A DNA stretch of 64,000 bases. Source: Candidatus Omnitrophota bacterium. Its GTDB lineage: Bacteria > Omnitrophota > Gorgyraeia > Pluralincolimonadales > Pluralincolimonadaceae. Positions 26,928 through 55,179 of this stretch are shown here, piece by piece. Within the stretch, counting starts at the first letter, position 1, and every line of letters starts with the position of its first letter. The translations under genes were made by a program, and so were the position numbers. Under the pieces are notes generated by a model that saw only the letters and a list, made by a program, of their open reading frames with translations, ran no database searches and was not told where the DNA came from. The stretch covers positions 1,638 to 65,637 of the forward strand of contig CAISWF010000170.1 of NCBI GenBank assembly GCA_903889135.1, given 5' to 3'.

Positions 26928-29717
26928 ATGATAGGAAAAATATTTTCAGCGGTAATAGGTACCCACAATGACAGGGAACTTAAGCGGATCAAGCCCAAGG
27001 CGGAGTTCATAACTTCCCTTGAGCCGAAGATCTCAAAACTCTCCGACGCCGAACTGCGTGCCAAGACAGGAGAGTTCAAGGCGAAGATAAAAGAGCGGCT
27101 CAAGGAGATCGATCTTTCGAAGCTCGAGAAGGCCGAGAGGCGCAATGTAGAGACTGAGGCCCTCGAGGAGATATTGCCGGAGGCGTTCGCGGTCGTGCGC
27201 GAAGCGGGCAAGAGAGTGACCGGTATGCGCCATTTCGATGTCCAGCTTATCGGCGGCATCGTCCTGCACGAGGGAAAGATATCCGAGATGGCTACCGGCG
27301 AAGGCAAGACGCTTGTCGCGACGCTGCCGGCATATTTGAACGCGCTGACCGGCCTCGGCGTACACATCGTTACCGTAAACGATTACCTCGCGAAGCGCGA
27401 CAGGTACTGGATGGGGCCGATATTCGAGTTCCTCGGGCTGACCGTAGGGATGATACAACATGACATGAACGACAAGGACCGCCAGGCGGCTTACAGGAGC
27501 GACATAACCTACGGCACGAATAACGAATTCGGGTTTGATTACCTGCGCGACAATATGAAATACCGGCTCGAGGATATGGTCCAGCGGCCGCTGCATTACG
27601 GTGTCGTCGATGAAGTCGACTCGATACTCGTAGATGAGGCCAGGACGCCGCTCATCATATCCGGTCCGGCCGAAGAATCGACCGATAAATATTATAAAGC
27701 CGCGACCATCGTCAGGGGCCTTGAAAAAGGCGCGAAGGACGAAGACACAAAAGAAGAGTCCGGCGATTACGTAGTGGACGAGAAAGGCCACAGCGTCTGG
27801 CTGACCGAGCAAGGTGAGGCGAAGGTCGTCAAGGCCTGGGGGCTTAAGGATATGCATTCGATGGAATCGGTCGAGGAGCGGCATTGCGTCGAAAAGGCGC
27901 TCCTGGCCAAGGAACTTTACAAGCTCGACGTGGAATATGTCATCAAGGACGGCGAGGTCATAATCGTCGACGAGTTCACCGGCCGCATGATGCCGGGCAG
28001 GAGATGGTCCGACGGGCTCCACCAGGCGGTCGAGGCCAAAGAAGGCGTCAAGATAGAGAGGGAGAACCAGACCCTCGCTACGATAACGTTCCAGAATTAT
28101 TTCAGGATGTTCGACAAGCTTGCCGGCATGACCGGTACGGCCGCGACGGAAGCGAACGAGTTCAGCCAGATATATAAGCTCGATGTCGTCGTGATCCCGA
28201 CGAACAGGCCGCTCATAAGGACGAACCATCCGGACAGCATTTATAAATCCGAAAAAGAGAAATTCAACGCGGCCGCCGACGAGATCGCGCAATTATACGA
28301 GAAAGGCCAGCCCGTCCTGGTAGGCACGATATCGATCGATAAATCCGAACGTTTAAGTAACATGCTGCAGCGCCGCGGAATACCGCACCAGGTATTGAAC
28401 GCGAAATATCACGAGTCGGAGGCGCATATAGTCGCGCAGGCCGGGCGGTATAAAGCGATAACTATCGCGACTAATATGGCCGGCCGCGGCACCGATATCC
28501 TTCTCGGCGGCAACGCGGAATATATAGTCTACGACTATTTTAAGCAGAAGGGGATAGAGCCCGAGGATATCGACCCCAAGGAAAAGGCCGAGATGCTGGT
28601 GAAGTTCAAGTCGAAGGTCGAAGACGAGCATAATAAAGTCATCGCGGTCGGGGGCCTGCATGTACTCGGCACCGAGCGCCATGAGGCGCGGCGCATCGAT
28701 AACCAGCTCCGCGGCAGGTGCGGACGCCAGGGTGACCCGGGCTCATCGAGGTTCTATCTTTCGCTGGAGGACGACCTGATGAGGATATTCGGCTCGGACA
28801 GGATAAAATACATAATGGAAAAACTGGGGATGGAAGAGGGCCAGCCGATAGAACATCCCATCGTTTCGAGGTCTATCGAGACGGCGCAGAAACGGGTCGA
28901 GGCGCATAACTTCGAGATAAGGAAGCAATTGCTCGAATATGATAACGTAATGAACAAGCAGAGGGAGGTCATCTATTCCGAGAGGCGCGCGATACTCGAG
29001 GGCAAGGACATCAAGGAATATATCGCCGCGATGATAGAGAACGGCCTCGACTCGGCGATGGATATCTACCTCAACGAGAAGACGCATGCCGAGGAGTGGG
29101 ATACAAAAGGTTTCTCGGAGTGGTTCCGCGGGAAATTAGGCTTCGACCTTCCCGTTAACCGCGAGGAGTTTTTCGCTGCGCCGCGCCACGACATAAGGGC
29201 GGGGCTCCTCGATATAATAAATAAATTTTACGAAAAGAGGGAGTTAGTCCTAGGCGCGGACATGACCAGGCACATTGAGAAGACGATACTGCTCGACATG
29301 ATAGACTCGAAATGGAAGGACCATCTCTACACGATGGACCTGCTCAAGGAAGGCATAGGCCTGCGCGCCTACGGCCAGGTCGACCCGCTCGTCGAATACA
29401 AGAACGAGGGCTTCGCGATGTTCGAGGAGATGATGAACAGGATACAGGAAGACGCGCTCGAATTCATCTTTAAGGTCCAGGTAGCGACCCAGGAAAAACC
29501 GAGGGGCGTTTTCGAATCCGTCCCCCAGCAGATGATACACCGGGAGATGGGTTCGCTCGCCTCAAGGATACCTCAATCACAAGGCGGCGAGCCGGTCGAG
29601 GCCAGGCCGCCGGATGCCAAGCAGGCACCGGTCGAAAGGGAAGCTCCGAAAGTGGGCAGGAATGACCCTTGCCCATGCGGGAGCGGAAAGAAATATAAAA
29701 AATGCTGCGGCGTTTAG
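26928..29717 (+). CDS. secA: Preprotein translocase ATPase SecA
   Basis: The 929-aa product has DEAD-like motor motifs ([32 protein letters not shown]) and a C-terminal Zn-binding tail [14 protein letters not shown]. Confidence 0.95.
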
Positions 29718-31258
29718 TCTTTTTACCGTTACTATCGGCATTATTGCTGACGCTGTCTTATCCGGCGTTCGATTTTTCATATCTTGCGTGGTTCGCGCTG
29801 ATACCGATGCTGATCGCGATCCGCGGAGAGAAACCGTGGCAGGCCTTCTTCACCGGTTATATAACCGGATTGTTATTTTTCGCCGCCACGCTGTACTGGG
29901 TCGGATACGTCGCGATAATAGGCGTCGTCGTCCTGGCGTTCTATTTGGCTTTCTTTTTCGGGATATTCGCAGTCGGCGTCGACATCCTCGCCATGCAGTT
30001 CGAAAAACCGCGCATAAGGTTCGCGGTGCTCGTGAGCTGCCTCTGGGTAGCGGTGGAATTGCTGAGGAGCCATCTTTTTACCGGTTTCGGATGGGCGCTG
30101 CTCGGGCACACGCAGTGGGACACCCTGCCGATAATCCAGATAGCCGATGTGGCCGGCGCCTACGGCGTCTCGTTCCTGGTCGTCTTTACCAACGTCCTCA
30201 TCTCCTCGAAGATAAAGAAGAAGATAAAGGGCTATATGCCGGAGCCGAGATACCTGGCGTTGCTGGTGATAGTGCTCATAGTGGTCGCGATATACGGATA
30301 TTACAAGGTCGACCAGAAATTCGATGGCGAACCCGTAAAAATATCGGTCATACAGGGGAATATCCCCCAGTCGGAGAAGTGGGATGAGAAATATGCCAAC
30401 GAAATACTGGATAAATATATAGACCTTACGAAAGAGGCGGCAAAGGACAAACCGGACCTGATAATCTGGCCCGAGACGTCGGTCCCGGGATTCCTTGAGA
30501 CCGACCAGTTCCTGCGCGGCAAGATCACCACCCTCGCGAAAGAGGTCAATACGTACATCCTGGTCGGGACGCAGACCGAGAGAGTGCCGCAAAAGGTGCG
30601 TTATTTCAACAGCGCCGCCCTGATATCGAACAAGGGCGAGATAGTAGGGCGCTATGACAAGATGCACCTCGTGCCGTTCGGCGAGTATGTCCCGCTGGGG
30701 AACGGCTTCCTGTCTTTCATCAAGCAGCGCTACGATATGGGCGAGGATTATACGCCCGGGAAAGATTACACGATATTCGAGATACCGACGCAGAAAGGCG
30801 GGCGGGTGAAGTTCGGCGTCCTGATATGTTTTGAGGATGTCTTCCCCGAACTGTCGAGGAATTTTGTGCGGTCGGGCGCGGACTTCCTGGTCGTGATAAC
30901 CAACGACGCCTGGTACATGAAGACCGCCGCGCCGTTCCAGCATGTCCAGCCTTCGGTCTTCCGCGCGGTCGAGGACAGGGTTAATGTTGTGAGGTGCGCG
31001 AATACCGGCTATTCGTGCTTTATAGACCAGTCCGGAAAGATCATCCAGGAGGTAAAGGATTTTAAAGGGGAGAAGATATTCGTGACGGGTTTCGCGACCG
31101 CGAATATAATCCCGGGAAAGGCCGGGACCCTGTATTTGGAATACGGGGACGCGTTCGCGCGGCTATGCGTTTGGGTTATTTTATTTGACTTAACCCTTTA
31201 TTTTATTTATAATTATGTCAAGTCTTCTCGACAAAGGCGGAAAAATTGGAAGAAATAA
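29702..31258 (+). CDS. lnt: Apolipoprotein N-acyltransferase
   Basis: A polytopic N-terminus is followed by a CN-hydrolase domain ([14 protein letters not shown]...[10 protein letters not shown]...VVITNDAWY). The gene overlaps the secA 3' end and the lysS 5' end. Confidence 0.85.
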
Positions 31259-32718: not shown

Positions 32719-33903
32719 ATGCGTTACGAATTGTTGGTAGCCTCGAGATATCTCCTCGCGAAACGCAGGGAGAAGTTCATATCGATAATCAGCCTGATCT
32801 CCGTGCTGGGTGTCGCGGTCGGCGTCTGCGCGCTCATTGTGGTCATCGGAGTGATGACCGGTTTCGATAACGAGCTGCGCGATAAGATAATCGGCGCGAA
32901 TTCCCATATCATCGTCGAGCAGGAAGGCGGTATCGTGGATTCCGCCGCGCTTATCAAAAAGATAAAGACCGAGCCCCACGTTGTTTCCGCTTCACCTTTC
33001 CTAGACGGACAGGCGTTCATCAGGGCGAAGGATACGATGCAGGGCGTCTCGATAAGGGGCATCGTCCCCGGCGAAGAGGTCAAGGTGTCCAAGCTCGGGT
33101 CCTATATCAAGTCCGGCTCTATGGCCGCGCTCAAGGACGGCGGAATGCTGATAGGCACCGAAATGGCGCAGAGGTTCGCCCTTAAGCTCGGCGACACAGT
33201 TTCGGTCCTTTCGCCGGTAGACGGCTCATCGAAAGATTTTAAGGTTGCGGGTACGTTCAATTCGGGTTATTACGAATATGATTCCGGGCTCGCTTTTGTG
33301 GACCTGAAAGACGCGCAGGAGCTTTTCGGCGAATGGGGCAAAGCCGGCGGGATCGGCGTGAGGATAGACGACGAATATCTCGCGCCGCAGATCAGGGTCA
33401 AGCTACAGAAAGAGCTGGGCTTCCCTTTTTACGTAAAGACATGGATAGACCTGAACAGGAGCCTTTTCTCGGCCCTTAAGCTCGAGAAGCTCGCCATGTT
33501 CTGGATATTGGCGCTGATAGTCACGGTCGCGTGTTTTAATATAGCGGCGACGATGATCATGGTCGTGATGGAGAAGACGAAAGATATCGGCATACTCAAG
33601 GCGATAGGCGCGGCCAACAATTCCATAAGGCTGATATTCACCCTGCAGGGATTCATAGTGGGCGCGGTGGGGACGGCGCTCGGCGTAGCCGGTGGGCTGG
33701 GTCTCGGGTATCTTCTCGAGAAGTACCAGTTCATCAAACTCCCGAGGGATATTTATTACATAGACAGGTTTCCCGTTGATATACAATACACGGACGTGGC
33801 CGCGATAGTCGTCGCGGCGCTGGCGATAAGTTTACTGGCCTGTCTCTATCCGGCATGGCAGGCGTCGCGGCTCAACCCGGTCGATGCCTTGAGGTACGAA
33901 TGA
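32719..33903 (+). CDS. lolC: Lipoprotein-releasing system permease (LolC/LolE, FtsX family)
   Basis: It has the N-terminal TM, a MacB-like periplasmic domain and a C-terminal FtsX 3-TM bundle (ILKAIGAANNSIRLIF), and it is followed by lolD. Confidence 0.8.
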   Translation: MRYELLVASRYLLAKRREKFISIISLISVLGVAVGVCALIVVIGVMTGFDNELRDKIIGANSHIIVEQEGGIVDSAALIKKIKTEPHVVSASPFLDGQAFIRAKDTMQGVSIRGIVPGEEVKVSKLGSYIKSGSMAALKDGGMLIGTEMAQRFALKLGDTVSVLSPVDGSSKDFKVAGTFNSGYYEYDSGLAFVDLKDAQELFGEWGKAGGIGVRIDDEYLAPQIRVKLQKELGFPFYVKTWIDLNRSLFSALKLEKLAMFWILALIVTVACFNIAATMIMVVMEKTKDIGILKAIGAANNSIRLIFTLQGFIVGAVGTALGVAGGLGLGYLLEKYQFIKLPRDIYYIDRFPVDIQYTDVAAIVVAALAISLLACLYPAWQASRLNPVDALRYE

Positions 33904-33904
33904 G

Positions 33905-34570
33905 ATGATAGAGGCCAGAGCCCTGCGGAAGATCTATAAGAACGGCGCGAAGGAGCTTGAGGTTCTCAAGGGCATAGACCTCAAAGTAGGCAAGAGCGAA
34001 GTCCTTGCGGTGCTCGGGCCGTCGGGTGCGGGTAAGTCAACCCTGCTCCATCTTTTGGGCGGGCTCGATTCGCCGACCGCCGGGGAAGTCATGATAGACG
34101 GCACCGATATCTATGCGCTCGGCGACAGGGAACGCGCGAAGATAAGGAACAGGAAGATAGGTTTCGTATTCCAGTTCTACCACTTGCTTCCTGAATTCGA
34201 CGCGCTCGAAAATGTCATGCTTCCGTTGTTGATAAAGGGCGGGAACGGAAAAGATCTGCGCGACAAAGGGGCCGGCCTGCTGAGGTCCGTGGGGCTGGGG
34301 GAACGGATGGCGCATAGGCCCGGCCAGTTATCCGGAGGAGAACAGCAGAGGGTGGCGATAGCCAGGGCCCTTATAAACGAACCGGAACTTCTCCTCTGCG
34401 ATGAGCCGACCGGGAACCTCGATTCCGAGTCGGGAAATAATGTAATTGACTTGTTGTGGGAACTCAATAAAAGTCGTAAAATGACATTGATGATAGTGAC
34501 CCATGACGCGCAGATAGCAAAGGCCGCGCAGAGGGTCCTGCACATAAGGGACGGAAAAATAATCCAATGA
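33905..34570 (+). CDS. lolD: Lipoprotein-releasing system ATP-binding protein LolD
   Basis: Walker A is GPSGAGKST, the ABC signature is [15 protein letters not shown], and Walker B is LLLCDEPT. Confidence 0.85.
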
Positions 34571-34583
34571 CAAGGAGAGTAAA

Positions 34584-35456
34584 ATGAGCCTGAAGATCTA
34601 TATTGACGGAAAATTCTACCAGAACGAGGACGCGAAGATCTCGGTCTTCGACCACGGCCTGCTCTACGGCGACGGCGTCTTCGAGGGCATCCGCACCTAC
34701 GACGGGCTCATCTTTAAATTGAAGGAGCACATCGACAGGCTCTACCAGTCCGCGCACGCGATCATGCTCGAGATCCCGATGACGAAAGAGGAGACGGTCG
34801 AGGCGATCAAGAAGACCCTGCGCGAGAACGAGCTGAAGGATTCGTATATCAGGCTTATCGTCACGCGCGGCATGGGTGACCTGGGGCTCGACCCGAGGAA
34901 GTGCGGGAAACCGACCATCATCATCATCACCGACAAGATAAAGCTGTACCATCAGGAATTATACGAGAAGGGCCTTGAGATCGTGACCATCTCGACGCAG
35001 AGGAATATCCACGAGTCGGTCAACCCGCAGATCAAGTCGCTCAATTACCTTAACAATATACTGGCGAAGGTCGAGGCGATCAACGCGGGCGTCGAGGAGG
35101 CGGTCATGCTCAATTCCGAGGGTTATGTCGCGGAATGCACCGGAGATAACATCTTTACCGTCAAGACCGGCGCGCTCTATACCCCGCCGGTCCACAGCGG
35201 CGTCCTGCGCGGCATCACGCGCGGCGCGGTCATCGATATCGCGCACTTAAAGGAGATCCCCATCCACGAGGAGGTCATGACGAGGTACGACCTCTTTAAC
35301 GCGGACGAGATGTTCCTTACCGGGACCGCGGCCGAGATCATCCCTGTTGTCAGGATGGACAGGCGCAAGATCGGCGACGGCAAGCCCGGAAAGATGACGG
35401 CGAAACTCATAACGGAATTCCATAAGCTTACGAAGGTCGACGGCGTGAGGTTCTGA
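34584..35456 (+). CDS. ilvE: Class IV aminotransferase (branched-chain amino acid / D-amino acid aminotransferase)
   Basis: [19 protein letters not shown] and [20 protein letters not shown] are present. The length of 290 aa fits the short BCAT/DAAT family, and the substrate is uncertain. Confidence 0.75.
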
Positions 35457-35962
35457 TGATCTGCCAGGTCTGCGCCAAGAACGAGGCTACGGTCGAGTTC
35501 ACCGAGATAATAAATGACGAAGTGAAACAGCTCCACCTTTGCGACGATTGCGCGAAGGAGAAGGGCATCGAGATGGAGCAGAGCTTCAGCATCTCTGACC
35601 TCCTTGCCGGGATAAGCGGCCTCGGGGAAAAGCCGTCCGGCGAAGAGCTCTCGGTGAAATGCGGCAAATGCGGCATGACATTCGAGGACTTCCAGAAGAT
35701 AGGCCGGCTCGGCTGCGGCGAATGCTACGGCGCGTTCAGGAAGAACCTCCTGCCGCTTTTAAAACGCATCCACGGCTCGGCCCGGCATATCGGGAAATCG
35801 CCCAAGGAGATCGACGAGACCGACGGAAAGAAGAAGATATCCGAGGCGCAGGAATTGCGGCAAAAGCTCCAGCGCGCCATCGATATGGAGGAGTTCGAAG
35901 AGGCCGCCAGGCTCCGCGACAGGATAAGGTCGCTCGAGAAGAAAGCTAAAGATAAGCCATGA
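35456..35962 (+). CDS. mcsA: McsA-like protein (zinc fingers plus UVR domain; activator of protein arginine kinase)
   Basis: Two CxxC pairs (CQVCAKN...CDDCAK; CGKCGMTF...CGEC) and a C-terminal UVR motif (EEFEEAARLRDRIRSLEKK) are present. It lies immediately upstream of mcsB. Confidence 0.7.
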   Translation: MICQVCAKNEATVEFTEIINDEVKQLHLCDDCAKEKGIEMEQSFSISDLLAGISGLGEKPSGEELSVKCGKCGMTFEDFQKIGRLGCGECYGAFRKNLLPLLKRIHGSARHIGKSPKEIDETDGKKKISEAQELRQKLQRAIDMEEFEEAARLRDRIRSLEKKAKDKP

Positions 35963-37008
35963 CCCTCGACGAGCTCTGGAGCCGGACCGGAGAATGGCTT
36001 AAAGGCACCGGCCCGAACCCGGATATAGTGATGTCCTCGCGCGTAAGGCTGGCCAGGAACCTGGCTAAATACCCTTTCCCGCACTGGGCATCGGCCGAAC
36101 AGCTCGAGGGCGTCATTTCGGATTTTGAGGGTGCCTATAAGAAGGCGGATTATTTCAAAGGGGCTTTATTCTTAAGGATAGACGCGCTCGACAGCATAGA
36201 AAAGCAGATGCTGATCGAAAGGCACCTTATAAGCAGGGAGCACATAGCCAATTCCGAGCATAAGGCGGTCCTCATAAGCGAACGCGAGATAATAAGCATC
36301 ATGGTCAACGAGGAGGACCACCTCCGCATACAGGTCCTCCAGTCGGGCTTGAACCTGCACGACACATGGAAGCTCGCGGACAAGATAGACGAGGAATTGG
36401 AGCAGAACCTCGAGTTCGCAGTCTCTTCGGACCTGGGTTATCTGACATGCTGTCCCACTAACGTCGGGACCGGCTTAAGGGCGTCGTGCATGGCGCACCT
36501 TCCGGCCCTGGTCATGACGAAACAGGCCGGCAGGATCATACAGGCGATAAGCAAGCTCGGAATGACGGCCCGCGGCCTATTCGGCGAGGGGACCGAGGCG
36601 TACGGGAATTTTTTCCAGATATCGAACCAGGTCACGCTCGGGCGTTCGGAAGAAGATATAGTCGATAACCTCGAGCGGATAATGAAACAGATAATAGAGC
36701 AGGAGAACACCGCTAGGAACTCGGTATTTGCGAACCAGAGGCTGCTTTTGGAAGACAGGATATCGAGGTCGCTGGCCGAACTGAAGAGCGCGAAACTTAT
36801 AAGCAGCGAGGAAGCGCTGAACCTGCTTTCGGTGGTAAGGCTCGGAGCGGACCTTGGCGTGATAAAGGGCCTGGACCGCAACGTCTTGAATGATCTTTTT
36901 ATACAGATACAACCCGCCCATCTCCAAAAGAAAGAGGGCAAGCGCCTGTCGGCCGAGGAGAGGGACGCAGTGCGCGCGGAGTTCATATCGAGGAAATTCA
37001 ATATATAG
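35959..37008 (+). CDS. mcsB: Protein arginine kinase McsB (ATP:guanido phosphotransferase family)
   Basis: The phosphagen-kinase active-site motif CPTNVGTGLRAS is present, and the RGxxGEGTEA loop is conserved. Confidence 0.85.
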   Translation: MTLDELWSRTGEWLKGTGPNPDIVMSSRVRLARNLAKYPFPHWASAEQLEGVISDFEGAYKKADYFKGALFLRIDALDSIEKQMLIERHLISREHIANSEHKAVLISEREIISIMVNEEDHLRIQVLQSGLNLHDTWKLADKIDEELEQNLEFAVSSDLGYLTCCPTNVGTGLRASCMAHLPALVMTKQAGRIIQAISKLGMTARGLFGEGTEAYGNFFQISNQVTLGRSEEDIVDNLERIMKQIIEQENTARNSVFANQRLLLEDRISRSLAELKSAKLISSEEALNLLSVVRLGADLGVIKGLDRNVLNDLFIQIQPAHLQKKEGKRLSAEERDAVRAEFISRKFNI

Positions 37009-37032
37009 TCCGTATTTTGAGGAGGATGGTCC

Positions 37033-39459
<2,427 letters not shown>

Positions 39460-39461
39460 AT

Positions 39462-39495
39462 CCCGTGGTAGAGGGTGTCCTCTACAACGGGATAA
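39462..39495 (+). terminator. Stem-loop after clpC (15-bp imperfect inverted repeat, 5-nt loop) without a U-tract
   Basis: The sequence is atcccgtggtagagg gtgtc cctctacaacgggat. It may be an attenuator or processing site rather than a canonical intrinsic terminator. Confidence 0.35.
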
Positions 39496-39513
39496 ACCGG
39501 AGGCGGGGCTGAC

Positions 39514-41298
39514 TTGAGACACAGACCGAGGCCGGCGTTAGTCATCCTGGGATTGACGGCGCTGGTCGTGCTCATATTTATAGACCTGCAAGGCAACTAT
39601 TTTTTCAGGGAATTCAGGGCAAAGTCCCTCGCCATGATGAGGGAGAAGATAGGGCTTGACGGAGAGATAGGCAGCGTCGAGGGAGGCGTATTCAGGGGCA
39701 TCATCCTCAAAGACGTCAAACTTTACGGCGCGGTCCACTCCCAGGCCAAGAAGGTCTTCTTCTCTGCGGCGGCCATCGACCTCAATTACCGGTTATGGGA
39801 CATAGCCCTCGGCAGGTATGGCAAGCTCGATAAGATAACTTTCGTATCGCCGAAGATATATTTCTTCGGGGCGGAGAATAAACTGCCCAAGGTACCTAAG
39901 GTCTTCGAGCCGGCATGGAAAGAGATAGCCGTATCGATAAGGGACGGTTCTTTTTATAACTCCCAGGGTGAATCGGTCATATCGGAAGTGAACGGCAATT
40001 TCAAGCTGAGCGAACGCGGCATAGAATCGCAGAACGTGAGCGCCAATATCCTGGGGCAGAGGTTTACGGGAAGGGGCAACGTCGGTTTCCCGATAGACCG
40101 GTCGGCTGTAAAAATGGAAGGCTCGATAAAGGGCCAGGGCTATACGCTGAAAGCCCAACTCGACGGCGTCCTCGACAGGATATTAGTACGCGGCTCTTTT
40201 GATATATTAAATAAACTGAACCTGAATTTTGCGGGCAGCATAGCCAAGTCCGAAGGGGCCCTTGCCTTCAATGATTTCAGGTTCGGACCGAAAACGATAG
40301 TAAGCGGCGTCCTCCAGACGGCAGGAAAGGGTTTCTGCATGAACCTGTATCCGGCGGACGTGAGCGGGAACGCCACCGCATTGGGGGAGGTGAGCAGGTT
40401 CTGCATCACGGGGGACTTCGCGAAACTTCCTTATTTCACCTTGACCGTGAACACCAATCATATCAAGGCGATGGGCTTGGACCTCCTTTCGAATTATTAC
40501 ATGAGCGGCAAGCTTAATTATGACGCGAATAATAAGATTGAGTCAGTGACCGGCGATTTCAGCACTTCAGGTTCGGTGATAAACTACGATCCGGTAAGGG
40601 AAATAAAGGGCGCGTACGAATTCAAGAACAGTGTGATAAAGCTGAGCGGCGTAAATTATGGCGATGTCGTTTACGCGAACGGCTCCGTCGGCATAGGAGA
40701 CAAGAGCGATCTCGACCTCCACTTTAAATTCAAAGGGGCCCAGCTCGGGGGCCTCACCGACCTCGCGATGGAGAAGGGGACGGTATCCGGGCTCGTGTTC
40801 GGTGATATGAATATCCGCGGCGGCATCGGTAAGGAGTTAAGCATGGACGGCCAGCTCGAGTTCAAGGATGGCAACATAGGCACAGTGCGATACAACTCCG
40901 CAAAGATAACATTGAGGGGCAAGAGTTATGCTCTTGAATTTATAGATTCAAAAGTCTATACTGGTGATCAGGTCCTTATGATCGAAGGTAAGATCGATCT
41001 GAGGGATATCGGGACGCAGCGGCTCTTTCGCAGCGTCCTGATAAAGGCGGACCAGAACACGGTCGTGTGGGCGGGTGCGAATACGATGAAAGCGGCGGCC
41101 GGGGAATCCCTGACAGGGGGGAGCGCGAGCGAACAATTCAAGGTCAACCTGAAGACTTACGAGTCCCAGCAGGGCAACCAGCTGCCGCGGCAGGATACGG
41201 CCGATGCGGAATATAAACTTGCGAACCAGGCAAATACTAAATTGAAGATGAAAGAGAACGAGGATTTCTTCGGGGTAGAGCACAAGGTGAGGTTCTGA
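39514..41298 (+). CDS. Hypothetical membrane-anchored protein, possibly AsmA/TamB-like (beta-rich periplasmic domain)
   Basis: A TTG start 9 nt after a GGAGG RBS. The N-terminal TM (ALVILGLTALVVLIFI) is followed by a long region rich in Gly, Ser, Asn and beta-strand residues with repeated GxxxG / KLSG / SGxV patterns. It lies directly upstream of mlaE. Confidence 0.35.
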   Translation: MRHRPRPALVILGLTALVVLIFIDLQGNYFFREFRAKSLAMMREKIGLDGEIGSVEGGVFRGIILKDVKLYGAVHSQAKKVFFSAAAIDLNYRLWDIALGRYGKLDKITFVSPKIYFFGAENKLPKVPKVFEPAWKEIAVSIRDGSFYNSQGESVISEVNGNFKLSERGIESQNVSANILGQRFTGRGNVGFPIDRSAVKMEGSIKGQGYTLKAQLDGVLDRILVRGSFDILNKLNLNFAGSIAKSEGALAFNDFRFGPKTIVSGVLQTAGKGFCMNLYPADVSGNATALGEVSRFCITGDFAKLPYFTLTVNTNHIKAMGLDLLSNYYMSGKLNYDANNKIESVTGDFSTSGSVINYDPVREIKGAYEFKNSVIKLSGVNYGDVVYANGSVGIGDKSDLDLHFKFKGAQLGGLTDLAMEKGTVSGLVFGDMNIRGGIGKELSMDGQLEFKDGNIGTVRYNSAKITLRGKSYALEFIDSKVYTGDQVLMIEGKIDLRDIGTQRLFRSVLIKADQNTVVWAGANTMKAAAGESLTGGSASEQFKVNLKTYESQQGNQLPRQDTADAEYKLANQANTKLKMKENEDFFGVEHKVRF

Positions 41299-41302
41299 CG
41301 AT

Positions 41303-42088
41303 ATGAGCGCTTGGATAAGGATGCTGGGTGAAAGGTTCCTGAATTTTGTCCGTTATGCCGGCGGAGTATCCGTCCTCTTCGCGCGGACGATATTCTGGGT
41401 ATTCGTGCCGCCTCTCAAGGGCAGGCAGGTCCTTGACCAGATGGTCAGGATCGGCGTCGACAGCCTGCCGATAGTATTTCTTACCAGCCTCTTTACCGGC
41501 ATGGTCCTCGCCCTGCAGAGCGCTTACCAGATGCAGAAGATGGAGGCGAAGCTCTATATAGCGAGCCTCGTCGCGCTCTCTATCACGAGGGAATTAGGGC
41601 CTGTGCTGACCGCGCTTGTGGTCGCGGGTCGCGTCGGCGCCTCAATAGCCGCCGAACTCGGTACGATGAAGGTGACCGAGCAGATAGACGCGCTCGAGAC
41701 CCTGGCGACGAACCCGATAAAATATCTCGTGGTGCCCAGGTTCATCGCGCTGTTTTTCATGCTGCCGCTGTTGACGATATACGCCGACATCGTCGGAATA
41801 TTCGGCGGGTACATGATCGGCGTCTGGAGGCTGAATATACTCAGCAACCTTTATTGGGACATGACCTGGAGCCCGCTTCACATCAAAGATATAGTCACCG
41901 GCATCATCAAGGCCTTCGCTTTCGGCGTCATAATATGCATAGTGGCCTGCTACGAGGGTATGAGGGTCGAAGGGGGCGCCGAGGGAGTCGGCGCGGCGAC
42001 GACGAAGGCGGTCGTCATCGCGTTCATACTCATAATCGCGGCCGACTGCCTCTTTACCGCGTTGTTCTATTTTGGGTTTTCATTTTAA
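41303..42088 (+). CDS. mlaE: ABC transporter permease MlaE
   Basis: GPVLTALVVAGRVGASIAAELGTMKVTEQIDALETLATNPIKYLVVPRFIA is canonical for the MlaE/YrbE/TGD1 family. Confidence 0.85.
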   Translation: MSAWIRMLGERFLNFVRYAGGVSVLFARTIFWVFVPPLKGRQVLDQMVRIGVDSLPIVFLTSLFTGMVLALQSAYQMQKMEAKLYIASLVALSITRELGPVLTALVVAGRVGASIAAELGTMKVTEQIDALETLATNPIKYLVVPRFIALFFMLPLLTIYADIVGIFGGYMIGVWRLNILSNLYWDMTWSPLHIKDIVTGIIKAFAFGVIICIVACYEGMRVEGGAEGVGAATTKAVVIAFILIIAADCLFTALFYFGFSF

Positions 42089-42159
42089 ATGATGGCTTGG
42101 GTCATGGAGCGAAGAGAGATGATCCAATGCCAGGATTTAATCCCCGAGGGGATTAACAT

Positions 42160-42909
42160 ATGATAGAACTGATCAATGTAAGCAAAGCGTTCGAGGACCA
42201 TGTGGTCCTCGATAACATGAACCTCACGATACAGGACGGCGAGACGATCGTCATTATAGGCCGTTCCGGCATCGGCAAGAGCGTCACGCTCAAGCATATA
42301 ATCGGCTTGATGAAGCCCGATTCCGGGCAGGTCATCGTCGACGGGCTGGACATAACCAGGCTCGACGCGAAAGGCCTTAACCAGCTGAGGACGAAATTCG
42401 GGATGCTCTTTCAGGGGGCGGCGCTTTTCGATTCGCTCAACGTGCGCGATAACGTGGCGTTCAATCTTATAGAGCATAGCAAGATGGACGATAAGGCCAT
42501 AGACAAGAGAGTGGCCGAGTGCCTGGAGCTCGTCGGCTTGCGCGGTATTGAACTCTTGAGCCCGGCAGAACTCTCCGGCGGCATGAGGAAGCGCGTAGGC
42601 CTTGCCCGCGCTATATGCATGAACCCGAAGATAATCCTTTATGATGAGCCGACGACAGGCGTTGACCCGATAATGGCCGACGCGGTAAACGACCTCATCA
42701 AGGACCTGCAGGCGAAACTGAAGACCACGGCTGTAGCCGTCACGCACGACATGACCTCCGCCTATAAGATAGCGGACAGGATCGCGATGCTCTATAAGGG
42801 AAAGATCGTAGAGATCGGCACTCCGGACGAGATAAAGAACACCAAGAGCCCTATCGTAAGACAGTTCATAACGGGCGCGGCTATTGGGCCGATAACAGAG
42901 GACTCATGA
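42160..42909 (+). CDS. mlaF: ABC transporter ATP-binding protein MlaF
   Basis: Walker A is GRSGIGKSV, the signature is LSGGMRKRVGLARAI, and Walker B is ILYDEPTTGVDP. Confidence 0.85.
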   Translation: MIELINVSKAFEDHVVLDNMNLTIQDGETIVIIGRSGIGKSVTLKHIIGLMKPDSGQVIVDGLDITRLDAKGLNQLRTKFGMLFQGAALFDSLNVRDNVAFNLIEHSKMDDKAIDKRVAECLELVGLRGIELLSPAELSGGMRKRVGLARAICMNPKIILYDEPTTGVDPIMADAVNDLIKDLQAKLKTTAVAVTHDMTSAYKIADRIAMLYKGKIVEIGTPDEIKNTKSPIVRQFITGAAIGPITEDS

Positions 42910-42934
42910 TGATAATTTTTCCTAGGAGGCTCAA

Positions 42935-43645
42935 ATGAAGAGGATGGATCTGGAGTTCAAGGTCGGTATTTTCGTGGCGATAGGCATCGCCATCCTGATG
43001 TCCATGGTCTTTTCGCTGAAGGAGCTTAAACACGCCCAGCAGAACTATACGGTCAGGGTGCGTTTTGATTTTGCCAACGGCATCGAGGTCGCCGCTCCGG
43101 TAAGGGTGGCCGGCGTCCAAGTCGGCGAGGTGAAGAATATCGCGATCGCGGAGAATAAGGAAGCCAACAAGATGGCCGTCGACCTGTATATCGGGCTCGA
43201 CAAGAAGATAAAGATTGAGAAGGACTCCGAAGCGTTCATAAACACTCTCGGCCTTATCGGGGAGAAGTACGTTGAGATCCTTCCCGGCGCCCCGGGAGGC
43301 GAGGTGTTGAAACCGGGTGACGTGCTGGTGGGCAGGGAGTCGGTGCCGATAGAGAAACTGACCGAGAAGGGCTACGAAATAGCGAGCGGCCTGGGCGATA
43401 CGATAAAACATTTTAATAAACTTGTCGGCGACCCGGAGACACAGGCCGCGTTCAAGGCGACGATGCTAGACCTCAGGAAATTCATGGCGTCGGCGAACAC
43501 AGTCATGGACAAGGTCAAGGGAGGGGAAGGGACCGTCGGGAAGCTTTTTATGGACCAGGGCCTGTATGACGAGTTGGAGGCCTTCGTGAAGGATCTTAAG
43601 GCTCACCCCTGGAAACTGCTTTCGAAGCCGAGGGGAGAGAAGTAG
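42935..43645 (+). CDS. mlaD: MCE-domain protein MlaD
   Basis: An N-terminal TM is followed by an MCE domain (TVRVRFDFANGIEVAAPVRVAGVQVGEV). Confidence 0.8.
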   Translation: MKRMDLEFKVGIFVAIGIAILMSMVFSLKELKHAQQNYTVRVRFDFANGIEVAAPVRVAGVQVGEVKNIAIAENKEANKMAVDLYIGLDKKIKIEKDSEAFINTLGLIGEKYVEILPGAPGGEVLKPGDVLVGRESVPIEKLTEKGYEIASGLGDTIKHFNKLVGDPETQAAFKATMLDLRKFMASANTVMDKVKGGEGTVGKLFMDQGLYDELEAFVKDLKAHPWKLLSKPRGEK

Positions 43646-43678
43646 TAAAATAATAAAGGAAAGGAGGTGAGATAGAAA

Positions 43679-44671
43679 ATGCCATTTACGATCGTGCGCG
43701 CTTTTTTTGTACTTCTTTGCGGCCTGATGGGTTTCGGGATGGGGGATCTCTTCAAGACCCTGTTCGGAGATTTCGCCCCATATATCGGGATAGGCCTGGG
43801 CGTATTGCTCGGCGTTTTTATAATAGTGCTCGAATTGACATCTAAGAGGGTCTCGGTAAAAGGCCTTTCGGCCGCGGTATTCGGGATAGTATTCGGTATA
43901 TTGTTCGCGCGGCTTATAATAGAGGTATTCAAGCTGATGCATATGCCGGAGGACGTCAACGGCGTCCTCATAGTCATTTTCGCCTATCTAGGCATGGTCA
44001 TGGCGTTAAGGGGCAAGGATGAGTTCAATATAATAATCCCTTACGTCAAATTGAGGAGGGAAGACCAGCGCGAGGAGATCATAGTCCTCGATACATCCGT
44101 AATCATAGACGGCAGGATCGCCGACATATGCCATACGAAGTTCATAGAAGGTAAATTAGTCATCCCGAGGTTCGTTCTTAAGGAACTGCAGCAGATAGCC
44201 GATTCGGCGGACCCGATCAAGAGGAACCGCGGCAGGCGCGGCCTCGATATGCTCAACAAGATACGCAAGTCCGGACATATGGAAGTCAAGATCCATGAGG
44301 AGGACCTTCCGGAGATCCGCGATGTCGACGCGAAACTCATTAAACTCGCGAAGATGCTCAACGCCAAGGTATTTACCAACGACTATAACCTTAACAAGAT
44401 AGCAGAGCTTCAGGGCGTGTCGGTACTCAATATAAATGAGCTGGCCAACGCGCTGAAGCCCGTGGTCATACCGGGCGAATTGATGGAAGCGAAGATAGTG
44501 AAGGAAGGCAAGGAGTATAACCAGGCGGTCGCATATCTCGATGACGGTACGATGGTGGTCATCGATAACGCCAGGCAGCTGATAGGGCAGACGGTAAAGG
44601 TCATAGTCACGTCGGTCCTTCAGACGGCGGCGGGAAGGATGATATTCGCGAAAATGGAATCACAGCGATAG
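43679..44671 (+). CDS. yacL: PIN/TRAM-domain membrane protein (YacL-like)
   Basis: Three or four N-terminal TM helices are followed by a PIN domain ([17 protein letters not shown]...[11 protein letters not shown]) and a C-terminal TRAM ([24 protein letters not shown]). It lies upstream of ispD-ispF, as in Bacillus. Confidence 0.75.
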
Positions 44672-44681
44672 GAGGCCGAAA

Positions 44682-45374
44682 ATGAAAGTAGCTGCGATAG
44701 TGGCAGCGGCGGGAAAAGGCGAACGGCTCAAGTCAAAGGTCCAGACGCCTTTTGTGGCGCTCGGGAAGGACCCGATATTACTGCATGCGTTGAGGGTCCT
44801 CGATAATTCCAACCTGGTCGGCGAGATAATCGTCGTTGCCCATCAGGCTGACCTCCCGAAGGCGCGGCTGCTTCTCAAAAAGGCCAAACTTAAGAAATTC
44901 AAGGAACTCGTCGCGGGCGGGAAGCGCCGTATGGATTCCGTCAAGAACGGGCTTTCCGCCGTCAGCGAGGACGTCGATTATGTAATAATACATGACGGCT
45001 GCAGGCCGTTCATAGACAATAAGATGATATCTTCTGCGCTCGGCGCGGCCGAGATCTTCGGCGCGGCTATCACCGGTATGCCGGTAAAGCCGACCATAAA
45101 AGAGGTGGAGAAGGGGAATTTTGTCGCGGCGACGCTCAAGAGGGAAACGCTGGTTGATGTCCAGACGCCGCAGGCCTTCAGGAAGGACCTCCTTTTGAGG
45201 GCTTACGATAAGGCCTTATCCGAAGGCGCCGAAACCGCGGACGCGACCGACGATTCGGCGCTGGTCGAGAGGATGGGCATAAAAGTGAAGGTCGTGGACG
45301 GCTCATACAGGAACATAAAGATAACGACACAGGAAGACTTAAGATACGCCAAGATGCTCATGGGTGAAAAATGA
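44682..45374 (+). CDS. ispD: 2-C-methyl-D-erythritol 4-phosphate cytidylyltransferase
   Basis: IVAAAGKGERL and IIHDGCRPF are present, and the length is 230 aa. Confidence 0.85.
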   Translation: MKVAAIVAAAGKGERLKSKVQTPFVALGKDPILLHALRVLDNSNLVGEIIVVAHQADLPKARLLLKKAKLKKFKELVAGGKRRMDSVKNGLSAVSEDVDYVIIHDGCRPFIDNKMISSALGAAEIFGAAITGMPVKPTIKEVEKGNFVAATLKRETLVDVQTPQAFRKDLLLRAYDKALSEGAETADATDDSALVERMGIKVKVVDGSYRNIKITTQEDLRYAKMLMGEK

Positions 45375-45847
45375 GAATAGGGCTCGGTTACGATATCCAC
45401 AGGCTTGTCGAAGGGCGCAAGCTCTTCCTCGGCGGCGTTGAGATCCCTTACATAAAAGGCCTGGAAGGCTATTCCGACGCCGACGTCCTTTTGCACGCGA
45501 TATGCGACGCGATATTGGGCGCCATGGGCAAGGACGATATCGGGATACATTTCCCGAATGACGACCCGAAGTTCAAAGGCATCAGCAGTCTCGAATTGCT
45601 GCACAAGGTCGCGGTGCTGGCGGAGGCGTCAGGTTTTAAGATAATAAACGTCGATTCGACGCTCATCCTGGAAGAGCCGAAGATCCTGCCTTTCAAGGCG
45701 AGGATGAAGAAGACGCTCGCCTCGGTGTTGGGGATAGATGAGGACCGGCTAAACATAAAGGCCACCACGCAGGAAGGCGTGGGCGCGATCGGCCGCGGGG
45801 AGGCGATAGCCGCTTACGCGGTAGCTTCTGTTGAGGAGATAAAATAG
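45371..45847 (+). CDS. ispF: 2-C-methyl-D-erythritol 2,4-cyclodiphosphate synthase
   Basis: MRIGLGYDIHRL and GYSDADVLLHAICDAILGA are canonical IspF motifs. The ATGA start overlaps the ispD stop. Confidence 0.9.
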   Translation: MRIGLGYDIHRLVEGRKLFLGGVEIPYIKGLEGYSDADVLLHAICDAILGAMGKDDIGIHFPNDDPKFKGISSLELLHKVAVLAEASGFKIINVDSTLILEEPKILPFKARMKKTLASVLGIDEDRLNIKATTQEGVGAIGRGEAIAAYAVASVEEIK

Positions 45848-46558
45848 ATGGAAGTATTGTTGATAGTGATACTGGCGGTCATCGCGGCTGCGGTGATCAA
45901 GTTTTGGCTCATTTCGATAATATTCAGGCAGGAGATCAAGGCGGTCTTCGAGCGGGACCCGGCCGCGAAGAGCGCATTTGAGGTGATACTGCTTTATTCC
46001 GGCCTGCACGCCATCATATATTACAGGATGTCGCACGCGATTTATAGCGCGGGCATACCCCTGCTCCCGAGGATGATATCGCAATACGCGAGGTTCATGA
46101 CCGGCATAGAGATACATCCGGGCGCGACCATCGGCAAGGGCCTTTTTATAGACCATGGGATGGGGGTTGTTATCGGGGAGACGACGGTGATAGGCGATAA
46201 CGTCACCCTTTACCAGGGCGTGACCCTCGGCGGCACCGGCAAGGAGAAAGGCAAGCGCCATCCTACGCTGGGCAATAATGTCGTAGTAGGCACAGGCGCG
46301 AAGGTGCTTGGAAATATAAAGATAGGCAACGATGTCCTGATAGGCGCCAATGCCGTCGTCATCAGGGACGTGCCGGCTGATTCGACGGTCGTGGGCGTCC
46401 CCGGAAGGATCGTAAAACAGGAAGGTAAGATAGTGCACGGCATAAGGCTCGACCATACGAATATGCCTGACCCGCTTGTGCAGGCCTTGCAGCACCTGCA
46501 GGACGAGATAGACAAGATAAACGCACATATAAAGAAGCACCACCAGGACCCTGAATAG
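45848..46558 (+). CDS. cysE: Serine O-acetyltransferase (short form)
   Basis: [42 protein letters not shown] and hexapeptide repeats match Bacillus-type CysE. The true start is uncertain; ATG 45848 would add a hydrophobic 20-aa leader, and an in-frame GTG giving [16 protein letters not shown] is an alternative. Confidence 0.8.
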
Positions 46559-46563
46559 ATTTC

Positions 46564-47997
46564 ATGCCCATCCTCATACATAACACCCTGACACGCAAAC
46601 TCGAAGAGTTCAGGCCCATCAGGGCCGGCGAGGCTCGCATGTACGTCTGCGGCGTCACCGTCTACGATGAATGCCACCTCGGCCACGCCAGGAGCGCATT
46701 CATATTCGATTTCATCAGGAATTACCTCGGGTACCGCGGATATAAGGTGACATTCATAAAAAATATCACGGATGTCGACGACAAGATCATAAACAGGGCG
46801 CGCACCGAGATCGCGGATAAAAAATCGCAGCTTTTCGGTAAAGACCTCAACTGCGCGGTAAAAGAGGTCGCCCATCGCTATACGGAGAGTTTTTACGGGG
46901 ACATGGGGTCCCTCGGCATCGCGAAAGCCGATAAGGAACCTAAGGCGACCGAGCACATAAAAGATATAATTAAAATGATAACCGCCCTTATCGATAAGGG
47001 CTGCGCGTATGCCTCGGGAGGGGACGTTTATTTCGACGTGAGGAAATTCGACGGTTACGGAAAGCTCTCGAACCAGGACAAGGACCAGATGCTGGAAGGG
47101 ACCCGGGCTGATACATCCGAAAAGAAAAGAGACGCCCTCGATTTCGCATTGTGGAAGTCGGCGAAGGCGAACGAGCCGGAATGGGATTCCCCGTGGGGCA
47201 AGGGCAGGCCGGGCTGGCACATAGAATGCTCGGCGATGTCTACCAGATACCTGGGCGACAATTTCGATATCCACGGCGGCGGCCGCGACCTCATCTTCCC
47301 GCACCATGAGAATGAGGTTGCGCAGTCGGAATGCGCGACAGGCAAGCCATTCGCCAATTACTGGATACATAACGGACTTTTGACGATAAACGGCGAGAAG
47401 ATGTCGAAGTCGCTCGGAAATTACGTTTCGATAAAGGACGTGCTCGCGCGTTACCCCTCGGACGTCCTGAAGATATTCTTCCTCGGGGCTCATTATTCTC
47501 ACCCGATAGATTTCACGTGGGAGAAGATGGATGTTGCGAAGAGCGCCTATGAAAGATTTCTCGTCTTGTTCGACAAGGCGGAAAGGCGCTTAGCCGGAAA
47601 GAAGGCGGCCGCGGCGAAAAGCCACAAAGAGATAGACGGATTTAGGGCCGCGTTCGAGGCCGGCATGGATGATAATTTCAATACGCCGGCGGCGCTTGGC
47701 GCGCTCTTCGATCTGGTCAATGCCGGCAACAAAATACTTGATAGAAATGAAGACGCTTCTGTGATAAAATATCTTGAATCCACCCTTCGGGAGCTGGGCG
47801 GTATCCTCGGCCTCAGCTTTAAGAACGCGTCAAACGGCATGTCGGATAACGAGATACAAGAATTGGTCGACGCCCGCATCGACGCGAAAAAAAAGAAAGA
47901 TTTCAAGGAATCCGACAGGATAAGGGAAGAGTTGGGCCGGAAAGGCATCATCCTGGAAGACGATAAAGAGAAGACTTACTGGAGGCGCAAGATATAA
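46564..47997 (+). CDS. cysS: Cysteinyl-tRNA synthetase
   Basis: The HIGH-type motif CHLGHARS, the Zn-binding Cys residues and KMSKSLGN are present. Confidence 0.95.
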   Translation: MPILIHNTLTRKLEEFRPIRAGEARMYVCGVTVYDECHLGHARSAFIFDFIRNYLGYRGYKVTFIKNITDVDDKIINRARTEIADKKSQLFGKDLNCAVKEVAHRYTESFYGDMGSLGIAKADKEPKATEHIKDIIKMITALIDKGCAYASGGDVYFDVRKFDGYGKLSNQDKDQMLEGTRADTSEKKRDALDFALWKSAKANEPEWDSPWGKGRPGWHIECSAMSTRYLGDNFDIHGGGRDLIFPHHENEVAQSECATGKPFANYWIHNGLLTINGEKMSKSLGNYVSIKDVLARYPSDVLKIFFLGAHYSHPIDFTWEKMDVAKSAYERFLVLFDKAERRLAGKKAAAAKSHKEIDGFRAAFEAGMDDNFNTPAALGALFDLVNAGNKILDRNEDASVIKYLESTLRELGGILGLSFKNASNGMSDNEIQELVDARIDAKKKKDFKESDRIREELGRKGIILEDDKEKTYWRRKI

Positions 47998-53775: not shown

Positions 53776-53779
<4 letters not shown>

Positions 53780-55179
53780 TGCGTCCCTTCGGCTTCGCTC
53801 AGGGTAAACTTGTCGATACCCATTGCCATCTGGATTTCCCGGAGTTCGATTCGGACAGGGAAGAGGTCATAAATAGGGCGAAAGCCGCCGGCATAGAAAA
53901 TATAATAAATGTCGCGAGCAGCTTCGACGGCTCAAAGAGGTCGGTCGCGCTCGCGAATAAATATGGTTGCGTTTACGCCTCAGTCGGCATCCATCCGCAC
54001 GACGCGAAGGAACTGGATGCGTCCTCGTTTTCCGCGATCAAAGACCTCGCCAAGGATAAAAAGGTAGTAGCTATAGGCGAAGTAGGCCTCGACTATTACA
54101 GGAACCTATCGCCTGCCGGGCTGCAGCAGGCGGCATTCAAGAAATTCCTCCACCTCGCAGAAGAGACTGGCCTGCCGCTCATAATCCACTGCCGCGAAGC
54201 GCGCGAGGACCTCCTGAAGATAATAAAAAAAGAGATCTCCGCCCCCGTAAAGGGGGTCGTCCACTGTTTTCCCCCCGATGAGGAGCTCCTTAACAGCGTT
54301 CTCGACCTCGGGATGTACGTCTCGTTCACAGGCAACCTCACTTTCAAAAACGCCGCAAAATCGCGCGAAATGGTAAAAGCCCTGGTCCCGATGGACAGGA
54401 TATTGGTCGAGACCGACGCGCCGTACCTTGCGCCGGAAGGGATGCGCGGCAAGAGGAACGAGCCGTCCTATATGGTAAAAGTAGTGGAGCAGATAGCGGA
54501 ATTGAAAGGGATCGCCCCGGAAGACGTGGCCAGAGCCACGACCGTTAACTGCGCGCGGCTTTTCGGGGTCGGCGCCGCGCCGGAATCGGCCGTTACGTAT
54601 AAAATAAGGGACTCCTTGTATATTAACCTCACCAACAGGTGCACCAGTGACTGCGAATTCTGCGTAACCAAGACGACGGATTTCGTGATGGGGCATAACC
54701 TGCGCCTTAAAGGCGAACCGTCGGCAAAAGAGATAATAGAGGAGATCGGCGACCCGTCCGTATACGACGAGATTGTATTCTGCGGATACGGCGAACCCAC
54801 TTTGCGGCTCGATTGCATGGTTGAGGTCGCGAAGGCCCTTAAGAAAAAAGGGGCCAAGATCCGCCTTACGACGAACGGCCACGGGAACCTGATAAATAAA
54901 AGGCGCATCGTCGACGACCTGGTCGGCCTTATAGACCGCGTGAGCGTGAGCCTCAACGCCCCGGACAAAGAGGTCTATGATAAGGTCTGCAGGCCGGCGT
55001 TCGGGCCGGGGACTTTCGGCGAGGTAAAGAAGTTCATCGCCGAGTGCAGGGAGAAACTGCCTGAGGTCGAGGTTACCTGCGTCGATTGCGAAGGCGTAGA
55101 TATGAAGGAATGTGAGAGGGTCGCGGCCGGGGAATTAAAGGTCAAGTTCAGGCCGAGGAGGCTCAATGTCGTGGGATAA
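53776..55179 (+). CDS. TatD-family metal-dependent hydrolase fused to a small C-terminal radical SAM domain
   Basis: Residues 1 to about 265 carry the TatD motifs LVDTHCHLD, GEVGLDYY, IIHCREA and ETDAPYL. About 200 aa of the C-terminus carry a CxxxCxxC radical SAM cluster motif (NRCTSDCEFC) and GYGEPTL. Confidence 0.75.

Follow-up and report, generated by a model that had tools for sequence, protein, structure and literature searches.

A predicted compact TamB-type protein encoded beside a minimal mlaEFD cluster in Candidatus Omnitrophota

The window considered here is a 64,000-nucleotide (nt) stretch of a Candidatus Omnitrophota genome (GenBank assembly GCA_903889135.1, contig CAISWF010000170.1, positions 1,638 to 65,637 of the forward strand), and our subject is a gene within it, called X from here on, that encodes a protein of 594 amino acids (aa) directly upstream of the lipid transporter genes mlaE, mlaF and mlaD. 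In the list of open reading frames (ORFs), X occupies positions 39514..41298 of the window on the plus strand, stop codon included, and its TTG start codon lies 10 nt on from a GGAGG ribosome-binding site that can be read at 39499..39503. The identical 594-aa product has been called independently on 18 public contigs. The protein begins with the basic segment MRHRPRP, followed by the hydrophobic core of an N-terminal signal-anchor, ALVILGLTALVVLIFI (residues 8-23, 39535..39582), which is its top Kyte-Doolittle window (2.58). No other hydrophobic segment is among the top windows, and it is strongly supported that X is held in the inner membrane by this single N-terminal helix. The anchor is followed by a predicted periplasmic beta-meander or groove region of about 33 strands (residues 49-495, 39658..40998) and by a C-terminal domain of eight short predicted strands (residues 508-594, 41035..41295) that ends in KLKMKENEDFFGVEHKVRF-COOH. 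A first-pass annotation, made from the sequence alone, had described a 594-aa ORF with one N-terminal transmembrane segment and a beta-rich remainder, in agreement with the hydropathy window at residues 8-23 and with the strands of the structural model presented below. It had also called the protein rich in Gly, Ser and Asn, of which Gly (11.1%) is indeed enriched and Ser (6.9%) and Asn (5.9%) are ordinary, and had reported repeated short motifs; self-BLAST of X finds no internal sequence repeats. The start it gave for the locus, 39462, falls just past the clpC stop codon (39459) and out of frame with X, while its end, 43645, is that of the mlaD stop codon.

The X reading frame closes at 41298 and the ATG of mlaE follows at 41303, leaving the gap of 4 nt that had been noted before. 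mlaE (41303..42088, plus strand) encodes the permease of an MCE-type lipid ABC transporter (PF02405, E 9e-84; TIGR00056, 259 bits against a cutoff of 212), mlaF (42160..42909, plus strand) an ABC ATPase (PF00005, E 4e-34), and mlaD (42935..43645, plus strand) a protein of 236 aa with one MCE domain (PF02470, E 7e-21; TIGR04430, E 1e-27, below cutoff). For MlaF, the dedicated NCBIfam model NF008809 ranks second (E 6e-61, below its equivalog cutoff) after the proV model TIGR01186 (9e-62). When the window was searched by phmmer, the E-values were 7e-39 for E. coli MlaE, 9e-55 for MlaF and 1e-9 for MlaD. MlaD consists of an N-terminal anchor, the MCE domain at residues 37-118 and a C-terminal extension of about 118 residues; Pfam detects no domain in it besides MCE. 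The minimal MlaEFD set of permease, ATPase and single-MCE MlaD is therefore complete in one cluster. The spacer between mlaE and mlaF (42089-42159) is 71 nt long in the window compared with 1-3 nt in the closest relatives (loci L001 and L002), and holds a perfect 9-bp palindrome, TTAATCCCC-GA-GGGGATTAA (42137-42156), which ends 3 nt before the mlaF ATG. Found only once in the window, the palindrome does not belong to a dispersed repeat; it may have come in as a small insertion, or may fold into a hairpin across the ribosome-binding region of mlaF.

No match to MlaA, MlaB, MlaC, TamA or an E. coli-like TamB was found by phmmer at E<=10 in the six reading frames of the 64-kb window, and Pfam scans of 36 window ORFs, in which small ORFs are only partly covered, found no MlaA, MlaC, STAS or Omp85 domain. 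The six-component MlaA-F system, defined by the presence of MlaA, MlaB and MlaC as well, was thus not found within the window, and the first-pass annotation was right that MlaC and MlaB are missing from the neighbourhood. MlaEFD is reported to be widespread and probably the ancestral state, MlaABC being for the most part a proteobacterial set (PMC10665443), and the absence of mlaC and mlaB is for that reason expected. As in most phyla outside the Proteobacteria, the minimal MlaEFD form is probably all that there is of the Mla system here, which would explain why MlaA, MlaB and MlaC were not found in the window.

Taken alone, X has a sub-threshold Pfam match to YhdP (PF13116, E 1.4e-5, 23.6 bits against a cutoff of 46), no match to TamB (PF04357) at E<=1 and no NCBIfam match. 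The gene evolves far faster than its neighbours, with 45-84% identity compared with 77-97% for MlaE and ClpC at the same loci. A family profile search retrieved 625 cluster representatives at E<=1e-3, 429 of them at E<=1e-10, with lengths of about 450-730 aa. When 85 diverse members (alignment A2, mean column identity 16%) were scanned with Pfam, matches at E<=0.01 were to TamB in 34 members, YhdP in 15, DUF748 in 7 and AsmA in 1, all of them families of the AsmA-like clan CL0401, and the best TamB match reached E 1.4e-9. These were the only families that recurred; three matches outside the clan were confined to one member each (E 0.002-0.008). The TamB gathering score of 22.4 was exceeded in four of ten members inspected (P0055, 38.2 bits; P0148, 27.2; P0060, 24.7; P0049, 22.9), which match positions 9-99 and 317-381 of the 381 in the model, that is, its start and its end. 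The start of the model (9-99) is matched about 200 residues before the C-terminus of the member, and the last approximately 68 residues of P0060 and P0072 match TamB-profile positions 317-381. In P0055 the start of the YhdP model is matched as well, by the N-terminus of the protein.

Comparison with proteins of known structure leads in the same direction. The best match of the A2 profile among PDB sequences is E. coli TamB (9xdc_B, E 4e-7), a second TamB ranks third (E 0.011), and apart from these two there is one weak match to VgrG. A profile of 27 close homologues (A1) found nothing among PDB sequences at E<=10, and the diverse alignment was needed to find TamB. In hhalign against E. coli TamB, residues 341-500 of X align with TamB 765-940 (E 6.5e-6, probability 85%), and a motif that follows the anchor, X 49-74, is collinear with TamB 45-69 at 36% identity. 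Judged by sequence, X appears to be a divergent TamB-type member of the AsmA-like clan that has kept both TamB ends around a much shorter groove; the AsmA/TamB-like identity suggested in the first-pass annotation is therefore upheld by the Pfam matches of the family, by the PDB match and by hhalign. Every named relative of X is from a metagenome-assembled genome of Candidatus Omnitrophota and is annotated "hypothetical protein", and a literature search linking Omnitrophota with TamB gave nothing relevant. Four further records labelled "uncultured Planctomycetia" (L009, L012, L014 and L016) carry the whole Omnitrophota gene block, with ClpC 87-92% identical to that of the window, and their label is probably wrong.

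An AlphaFold2 model of X built on a deep alignment is confident overall (predicted local distance difference test, pLDDT, 89.1; predicted template modelling score, pTM, 0.76) and consists of a helix spanning residues 7-46, about 33 antiparallel strands between residues 49 and 495, and eight shorter strands between 508 and 590. The consecutive antiparallel strands have pLDDT above 90, and they are amphipathic, the hydrophobic fraction being 0.64 on one face and 0.29 on the alternate one. It is strongly supported that X reaches into the periplasm with an amphipathic antiparallel beta-sheet of about 450 residues, the type of sheet that shields lipid in the groove of TamB and YhdP, and in X too the groove would be lined by the hydrophobic face. 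The central region (residues 121-300) is of variable length across the family, which accounts for the size range of 450-730 aa. The C-terminal third is the best conserved part, and the last approximately 25 residues form the most conserved block, with a motif like ...LKMxLKxxEEFxGVEHKxKF and a terminal Phe in 191 of 197 family sequences. E. coli TamB ends in ...YQFEF, and in the 2026 cryo-electron microscopy structures of TamAB the last strand of TamB (residues 1251-1259) pairs with beta1 of TamA to give a hybrid barrel (PMC12800296). By analogy, the C-terminal domain of X is a candidate docking element for an Omp85 protein, BamA.

Within the reach of the contigs, the order lolD-ilvE-mcsA-mcsB-clpC-X-mlaE-mlaF-mlaD is common to all 18 genome loci compared, including two in which X has only 23-25% identity. 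For more distant members, the context was read from contigs found by exact-sequence look-up. Eleven were looked up, ten of them with readable downstream DNA (that of L026 is too short), and mlaE directly follows X in nine of the ten (L020, L023, L024, L025, L030, L031, L032, L036 and L037). Together this makes 27 of 28 distinct X proteins with mlaE as the next gene and one with bamA, down to about 20% identity, and the adjacency to mlaEFD that the first-pass annotation put forward for checking in orthologous loci is thus conserved. Locus L025, from a distant Omnitrophota lineage (Logan SRR7589087, 6001-9836), reads clpC-X(650 aa)-mlaE-mlaF, after which come a small gene for a symporter accessory protein and one for an SSF transporter; no mlaD was found within 6 kb among called genes or by tblastn.

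The single exception is locus L034 of an Omnitrophota metagenome-assembled genome (GCA_016783345.1, JADHWT010000018.1, 308-12448), with the order clpC-X(729 aa, P0187)-bamA-skp-lpxC/fabZ-lpxA-lpxI-GFO/IDH/MocA oxidoreductase-lpxB-msbA-like ABC exporter, in which a full outer-membrane and lipid A cluster replaces mlaEFD. Homologues of the gene next to X in L034 are annotated BamA in Omnitrophota, and X there occupies the classical position of tamB relative to bamA, as in many bacteria. The order around bamA in 80 typical Omnitrophota-type metagenome loci is rplI-dnaB-bamA-skp-lpxD-lpxC/fabZ, and neither a match to the X profile nor a long TamB-like ORF nor mlaE is present in them within 10 kb. 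The search for a second TamB next to bamA in the same loci found none, the gene upstream of bamA being dnaB, with rplI before it. These loci thus give no hint of a separate long tamB next to bamA in the phylum.

The adjacency of clpC and X is as conserved and as tight as that of X and mlaE, with gaps of -4 to 77 nt compared with -1 to 114 nt (-1 to 18 nt in most relatives). Gap lengths do not separate the two pairs, and operon structure was therefore dropped as an argument for coupling between X and the transporter. The flanks of the block are also conserved: in L036 (1526-15674) X-mlaEFD lies inside mcsAB-clpC ... radA-PIN/TRAM-ispD-ispF-cysS, and radA follows mlaD in L020, L024, L030, L031 and L036, though not in the lineage of the window. 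We take the flanks mcsA-mcsB-clpC ... ispD-ispF-cysE-cysS to resemble the clpC-radA-disA-yacL-ispDF-cysES region of B. subtilis. The order radA-disA-yacL in B. subtilis is documented (PMC6755099). This is suggestive of X-mlaEFD as a module-like block of four genes within an old housekeeping array.

The closest published parallel is found in Veillonella parvula, whose mla genes are mlaEFD alone, in an operon with tolC and tamB behind them (Grasekamp et al. 2023, PMC10665443). Its mla mutants behave as retrograde-transport mutants, and mutations in tamB suppress the mla phenotypes; tamB beside mlaEFD without mlaABC is found in Veillonella and other Negativicutes (PMC10665443). As in V. parvula, a TamB-type gene and a minimal mlaEFD form one co-directional cluster in the window with no mlaABC found, and in both cases the organism is a diderm outside the Proteobacteria. 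The differences are that the order is reversed here, with X before mlaE and no tolC between them, that V. parvula TamB is long (mutations are known at K925 and Q1329) compared with the 594 aa of X, and that the MlaD of V. parvula has an elongated form with an outer-membrane beta-barrel at its C-terminus, whereas MCE is the only domain detected in the 236 aa of the window MlaD. The barrel by which V. parvula MlaD spans the envelope is also lacking from MlaD of the PVC group (Planctomycetes, Verrucomicrobia, Chlamydiae) and of the FCB group (Fibrobacteres, Chlorobi, Bacteroidetes) (PMC10665443).

We favour, with a probability of roughly 0.65, the reading that Omnitrophota have in X their short TamB, with an inner-membrane anchor and a lipid-shielding groove, docked on BamA by its C-terminus, and co-expressed with a retrograde MlaFED so that the two flows are balanced. 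In this scheme the groove of X would take up phospholipids at the inner membrane and let them move along its length. The C-terminal strands of X would attach to BamA as the Omp85 partner, in the way that the last strand of TamB pairs with beta1 of TamA in E. coli, and X and BamA together would complete a bridge to the outer membrane. X would be co-transcribed with mlaEFD, the ABC/MCE system that returns outer-membrane phospholipid in other bacteria, and an outward conduit and an inward pump expressed together would keep outer-membrane lipid in balance, as has been proposed for TamB and MlaEFD of V. parvula. Gene anatomy, homology at the family level, a confidently modelled beta-rich fold and synteny are the observations from which we infer lipid transport by X, its outward direction, docking on BamA and co-transcription with mlaEFD.

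Several points weigh against this reading. The approximately 450 residues of the groove are less than half of what TamB has, which puts in question whether X could span the periplasm even with the help of the POTRA domains of BamA. X by itself passes no Pfam or NCBIfam threshold, so that its membership stands on family-level evidence, and its C-terminal tail alone does not align significantly with that of E. coli TamB (hhalign E 0.11). No Omp85 gene lies within the 64-kb window, and further AsmA-like genes are possible elsewhere in the genome, beyond the loci in view.

The divergence of X could also mean that it is not AsmA-like, and is rather an unrelated, fast-evolving, beta-rich periplasmic or surface protein whose matches to TamB and YhdP reflect the compositional likeness of amphipathic beta-meanders. 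The failure of X to pass any curated threshold and its low identity beside MlaE and ClpC would fit such a protein. We nevertheless hold this to be very improbable, given that the AsmA-clan families alone recur across the 85 members, that the matches are collinear at the N-terminus, in the middle and at the extreme C-terminus, that the significant PDB-sequence matches are two TamBs plus the weak VgrG, and that X takes the tamB position beside bamA in one lineage. A different question is which substrate a TamB-type X would serve. It might be mainly a partner of BamA in the assembly of outer-membrane proteins (OMPs), like TAM (translocation and assembly module), and not a bulk phospholipid conduit, and its adjacency to mlaEFD would then be inherited order with no functional link. 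The TamB-type C-terminal domain with its terminal Phe and the direct bamA adjacency in L034 are in line with this, as is the phylum-wide order lolCDE-ilvE-mcsAB-clpC-X-mlaEFD, which takes in functionally unrelated genes, and TamAB has been linked to OMP insertion besides lipid transport (PMC12800296, PMC11341756). However, for AsmA-like proteins the beta-groove architecture and the genetics to date speak more for lipid transport (PMC10345924), and the linkage of tamB and mlaEFD recurs independently in Negativicutes in another gene order, which argues that the association is not purely historical; on balance a role mainly in OMP assembly seems unlikely.

It is also conceivable that X is the periplasmic part of the Mla machine itself, with its anchor beside MlaFED, its groove between MlaD and the outer membrane and its C-terminal strands on BamA, forming an ATP-powered bridge that replaces MlaC and MlaA. 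The analogy here is the Lpt system (LptB2FGC-LptA-LptD), which likewise combines an ABC transporter with a bitopic one-helix protein carrying a periplasmic lipid-binding beta structure; Lpt serves as an analogy for this idea only, and its proteins have no sequence relationship to X. The near-invariant X-mlaE adjacency and its short gaps would be expected of such a machine, as would the persistence of X-mlaEFD as a four-gene block inside the housekeeping array from clpC to cysS. The window MlaD is short, with MCE as its only detected domain, and neither MlaA nor MlaC was found in the window; PVC-group MlaD has no beta-barrel (PMC10665443), which leaves the route of MlaEFD to the outer membrane open in that group. 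X-mlaE-mlaF is kept even in L025, where mlaD was not found nearby. On the other side, the equally conserved and tight clpC-X pair means that short gaps are no mark of function here, and L034 has bamA-skp-lpx after X instead of mla. The conserved C-terminus of X resembles a TamB-type Omp85-docking element, known AsmA-like proteins function without an ABC partner, and the adjacent tamB and mlaEFD of V. parvula are antagonistic and not one machine (PMC10665443). The first-pass annotation had envisaged an AsmA-like bridge paired with an MCE transporter; the genes are adjacent, as it said, but a physical pairing does not follow from this, and we rate such a machine as still less probable than a role mainly in OMP assembly.

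If X is the short TamB that we propose, its likeness to E. coli TamB (PF04357, clan CL0401) lies in the single-helix inner-membrane anchor, the motif behind it, the predicted amphipathic beta-groove region and the terminal Phe, in the match of family members to both ends of the model for TamB's C-terminal domain, and in the Omp85 gene adjacent to X in one lineage. It differs in size (594 compared with 1259 aa), in a central groove that is shortened and variable in the family, and in being too diverged for the Pfam threshold; X of the window adjoins mlaEFD and not an Omp85 gene, and the Omp85 gene linked to the family is bamA, which lies downstream and not upstream. E. coli AsmA, YicH and YhjG, of about 570-690 aa, are closer in size, and have the N-terminal anchor and the beta-groove predicted for X; they are thought too short to span the periplasm alone. 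The X family, however, matches Pfam TamB far more often than AsmA (34 members compared with one) and has a TamB-like C-terminal end. In Borrelia the TamB is a long protein, and we know of no linkage to mla there. A pairing with BamA of the kind that the L034 adjacency suggests for X is described, as a BAM-TAM hybrid complex, for the TamB-type protein of Borrelia burgdorferi, an organism without TamA (PMC13382580). The functions of the short E. coli paralogues AsmA, YicH and YhjG are themselves unknown (PMC10345924).

The arrangement had been called non-canonical in the first-pass annotation. The pairing of the genes is real, but MlaEFD without the other components is common outside the Proteobacteria and tamB with mlaEFD is known from Veillonella (PMC10665443), and what is seen here is a variation on a published theme and not a new kind of system. 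What is new is that the family had no annotation, that it is about half the size of characterised TamB, and that it occurs in a second phylum, where the genes stand in another order and MlaD is short. A "hypothetical protein" family of at least 625 sequence clusters, conserved across Omnitrophota, thereby receives a name and a role that can be tested. Half-size TamBs with both ends and about 450 groove residues offer a minimal version in which to ask how long a bridge has to be and what the Omp85-docking element needs. With Omnitrophota, the linkage of a TamB-type gene to a minimal mlaEFD is now seen in a second phylum besides Negativicutes, and this adds weight to the view that the outward and inward routes of phospholipid are regulated together. 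Physical coupling of X to MlaFED, if true, would be a new transport architecture, and a candidate explanation of how, in PVC-type bacteria, MlaD systems without a barrel get to the outer membrane.

The plus strand of the window is a long run of co-directional, tightly packed genes, among them those for a SurA-like protein (15898-16926), ComEC (16952-19372), a BamD/YfiO-like protein (19837-20793), MurJ (22517-24067), SecA (26928-29717), Lnt (29702-31258) and LolC/E (32719-33903). These are followed by a LolD-like ABC ATPase (33905-34570), named from its similarity to lolD of the relatives and its place after LolC/E, an ilvE-like aminotransferase (34584-35456), mcsA-like and mcsB-like genes (35456-35962 and 35959-37008) and clpC (37033-39459). 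Downstream of mlaD lie a membrane PIN/TRAM protein gene (43679-44671) and ispD, ispF, cysE and cysS (44682-47997), all on the plus strand as well. A promoter and terminator scan of 36900-44800 gave nothing informative where the genes meet. The SurA-like and BamD-like proteins, Lnt and LolCDE show that the organism is a diderm with lipoprotein sorting, and with Bam and Lol machinery outer-membrane lipoproteins, such as an analogue of MlaA, are possible in principle.

Three further observations were made outside the X locus. Near the left end of the window, the ORFs at 69-1196 (plus strand, 375 aa) and 1229-2398 (minus strand, 389 aa) have no Pfam match at E<=1e-5. At 53776-55179 a single ORF of 467 aa contains a complete TatD DNase domain (residues 13-264) and a radical SAM domain (residues 283-445), and is either an unusual fusion or a read-through of two genes. 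On one of the Omnitrophota-type metagenome contigs (L041, 19194-22178), about 7 kb downstream of bamA, there is an RtcB RNA ligase gene that contains an intein (994 aa).

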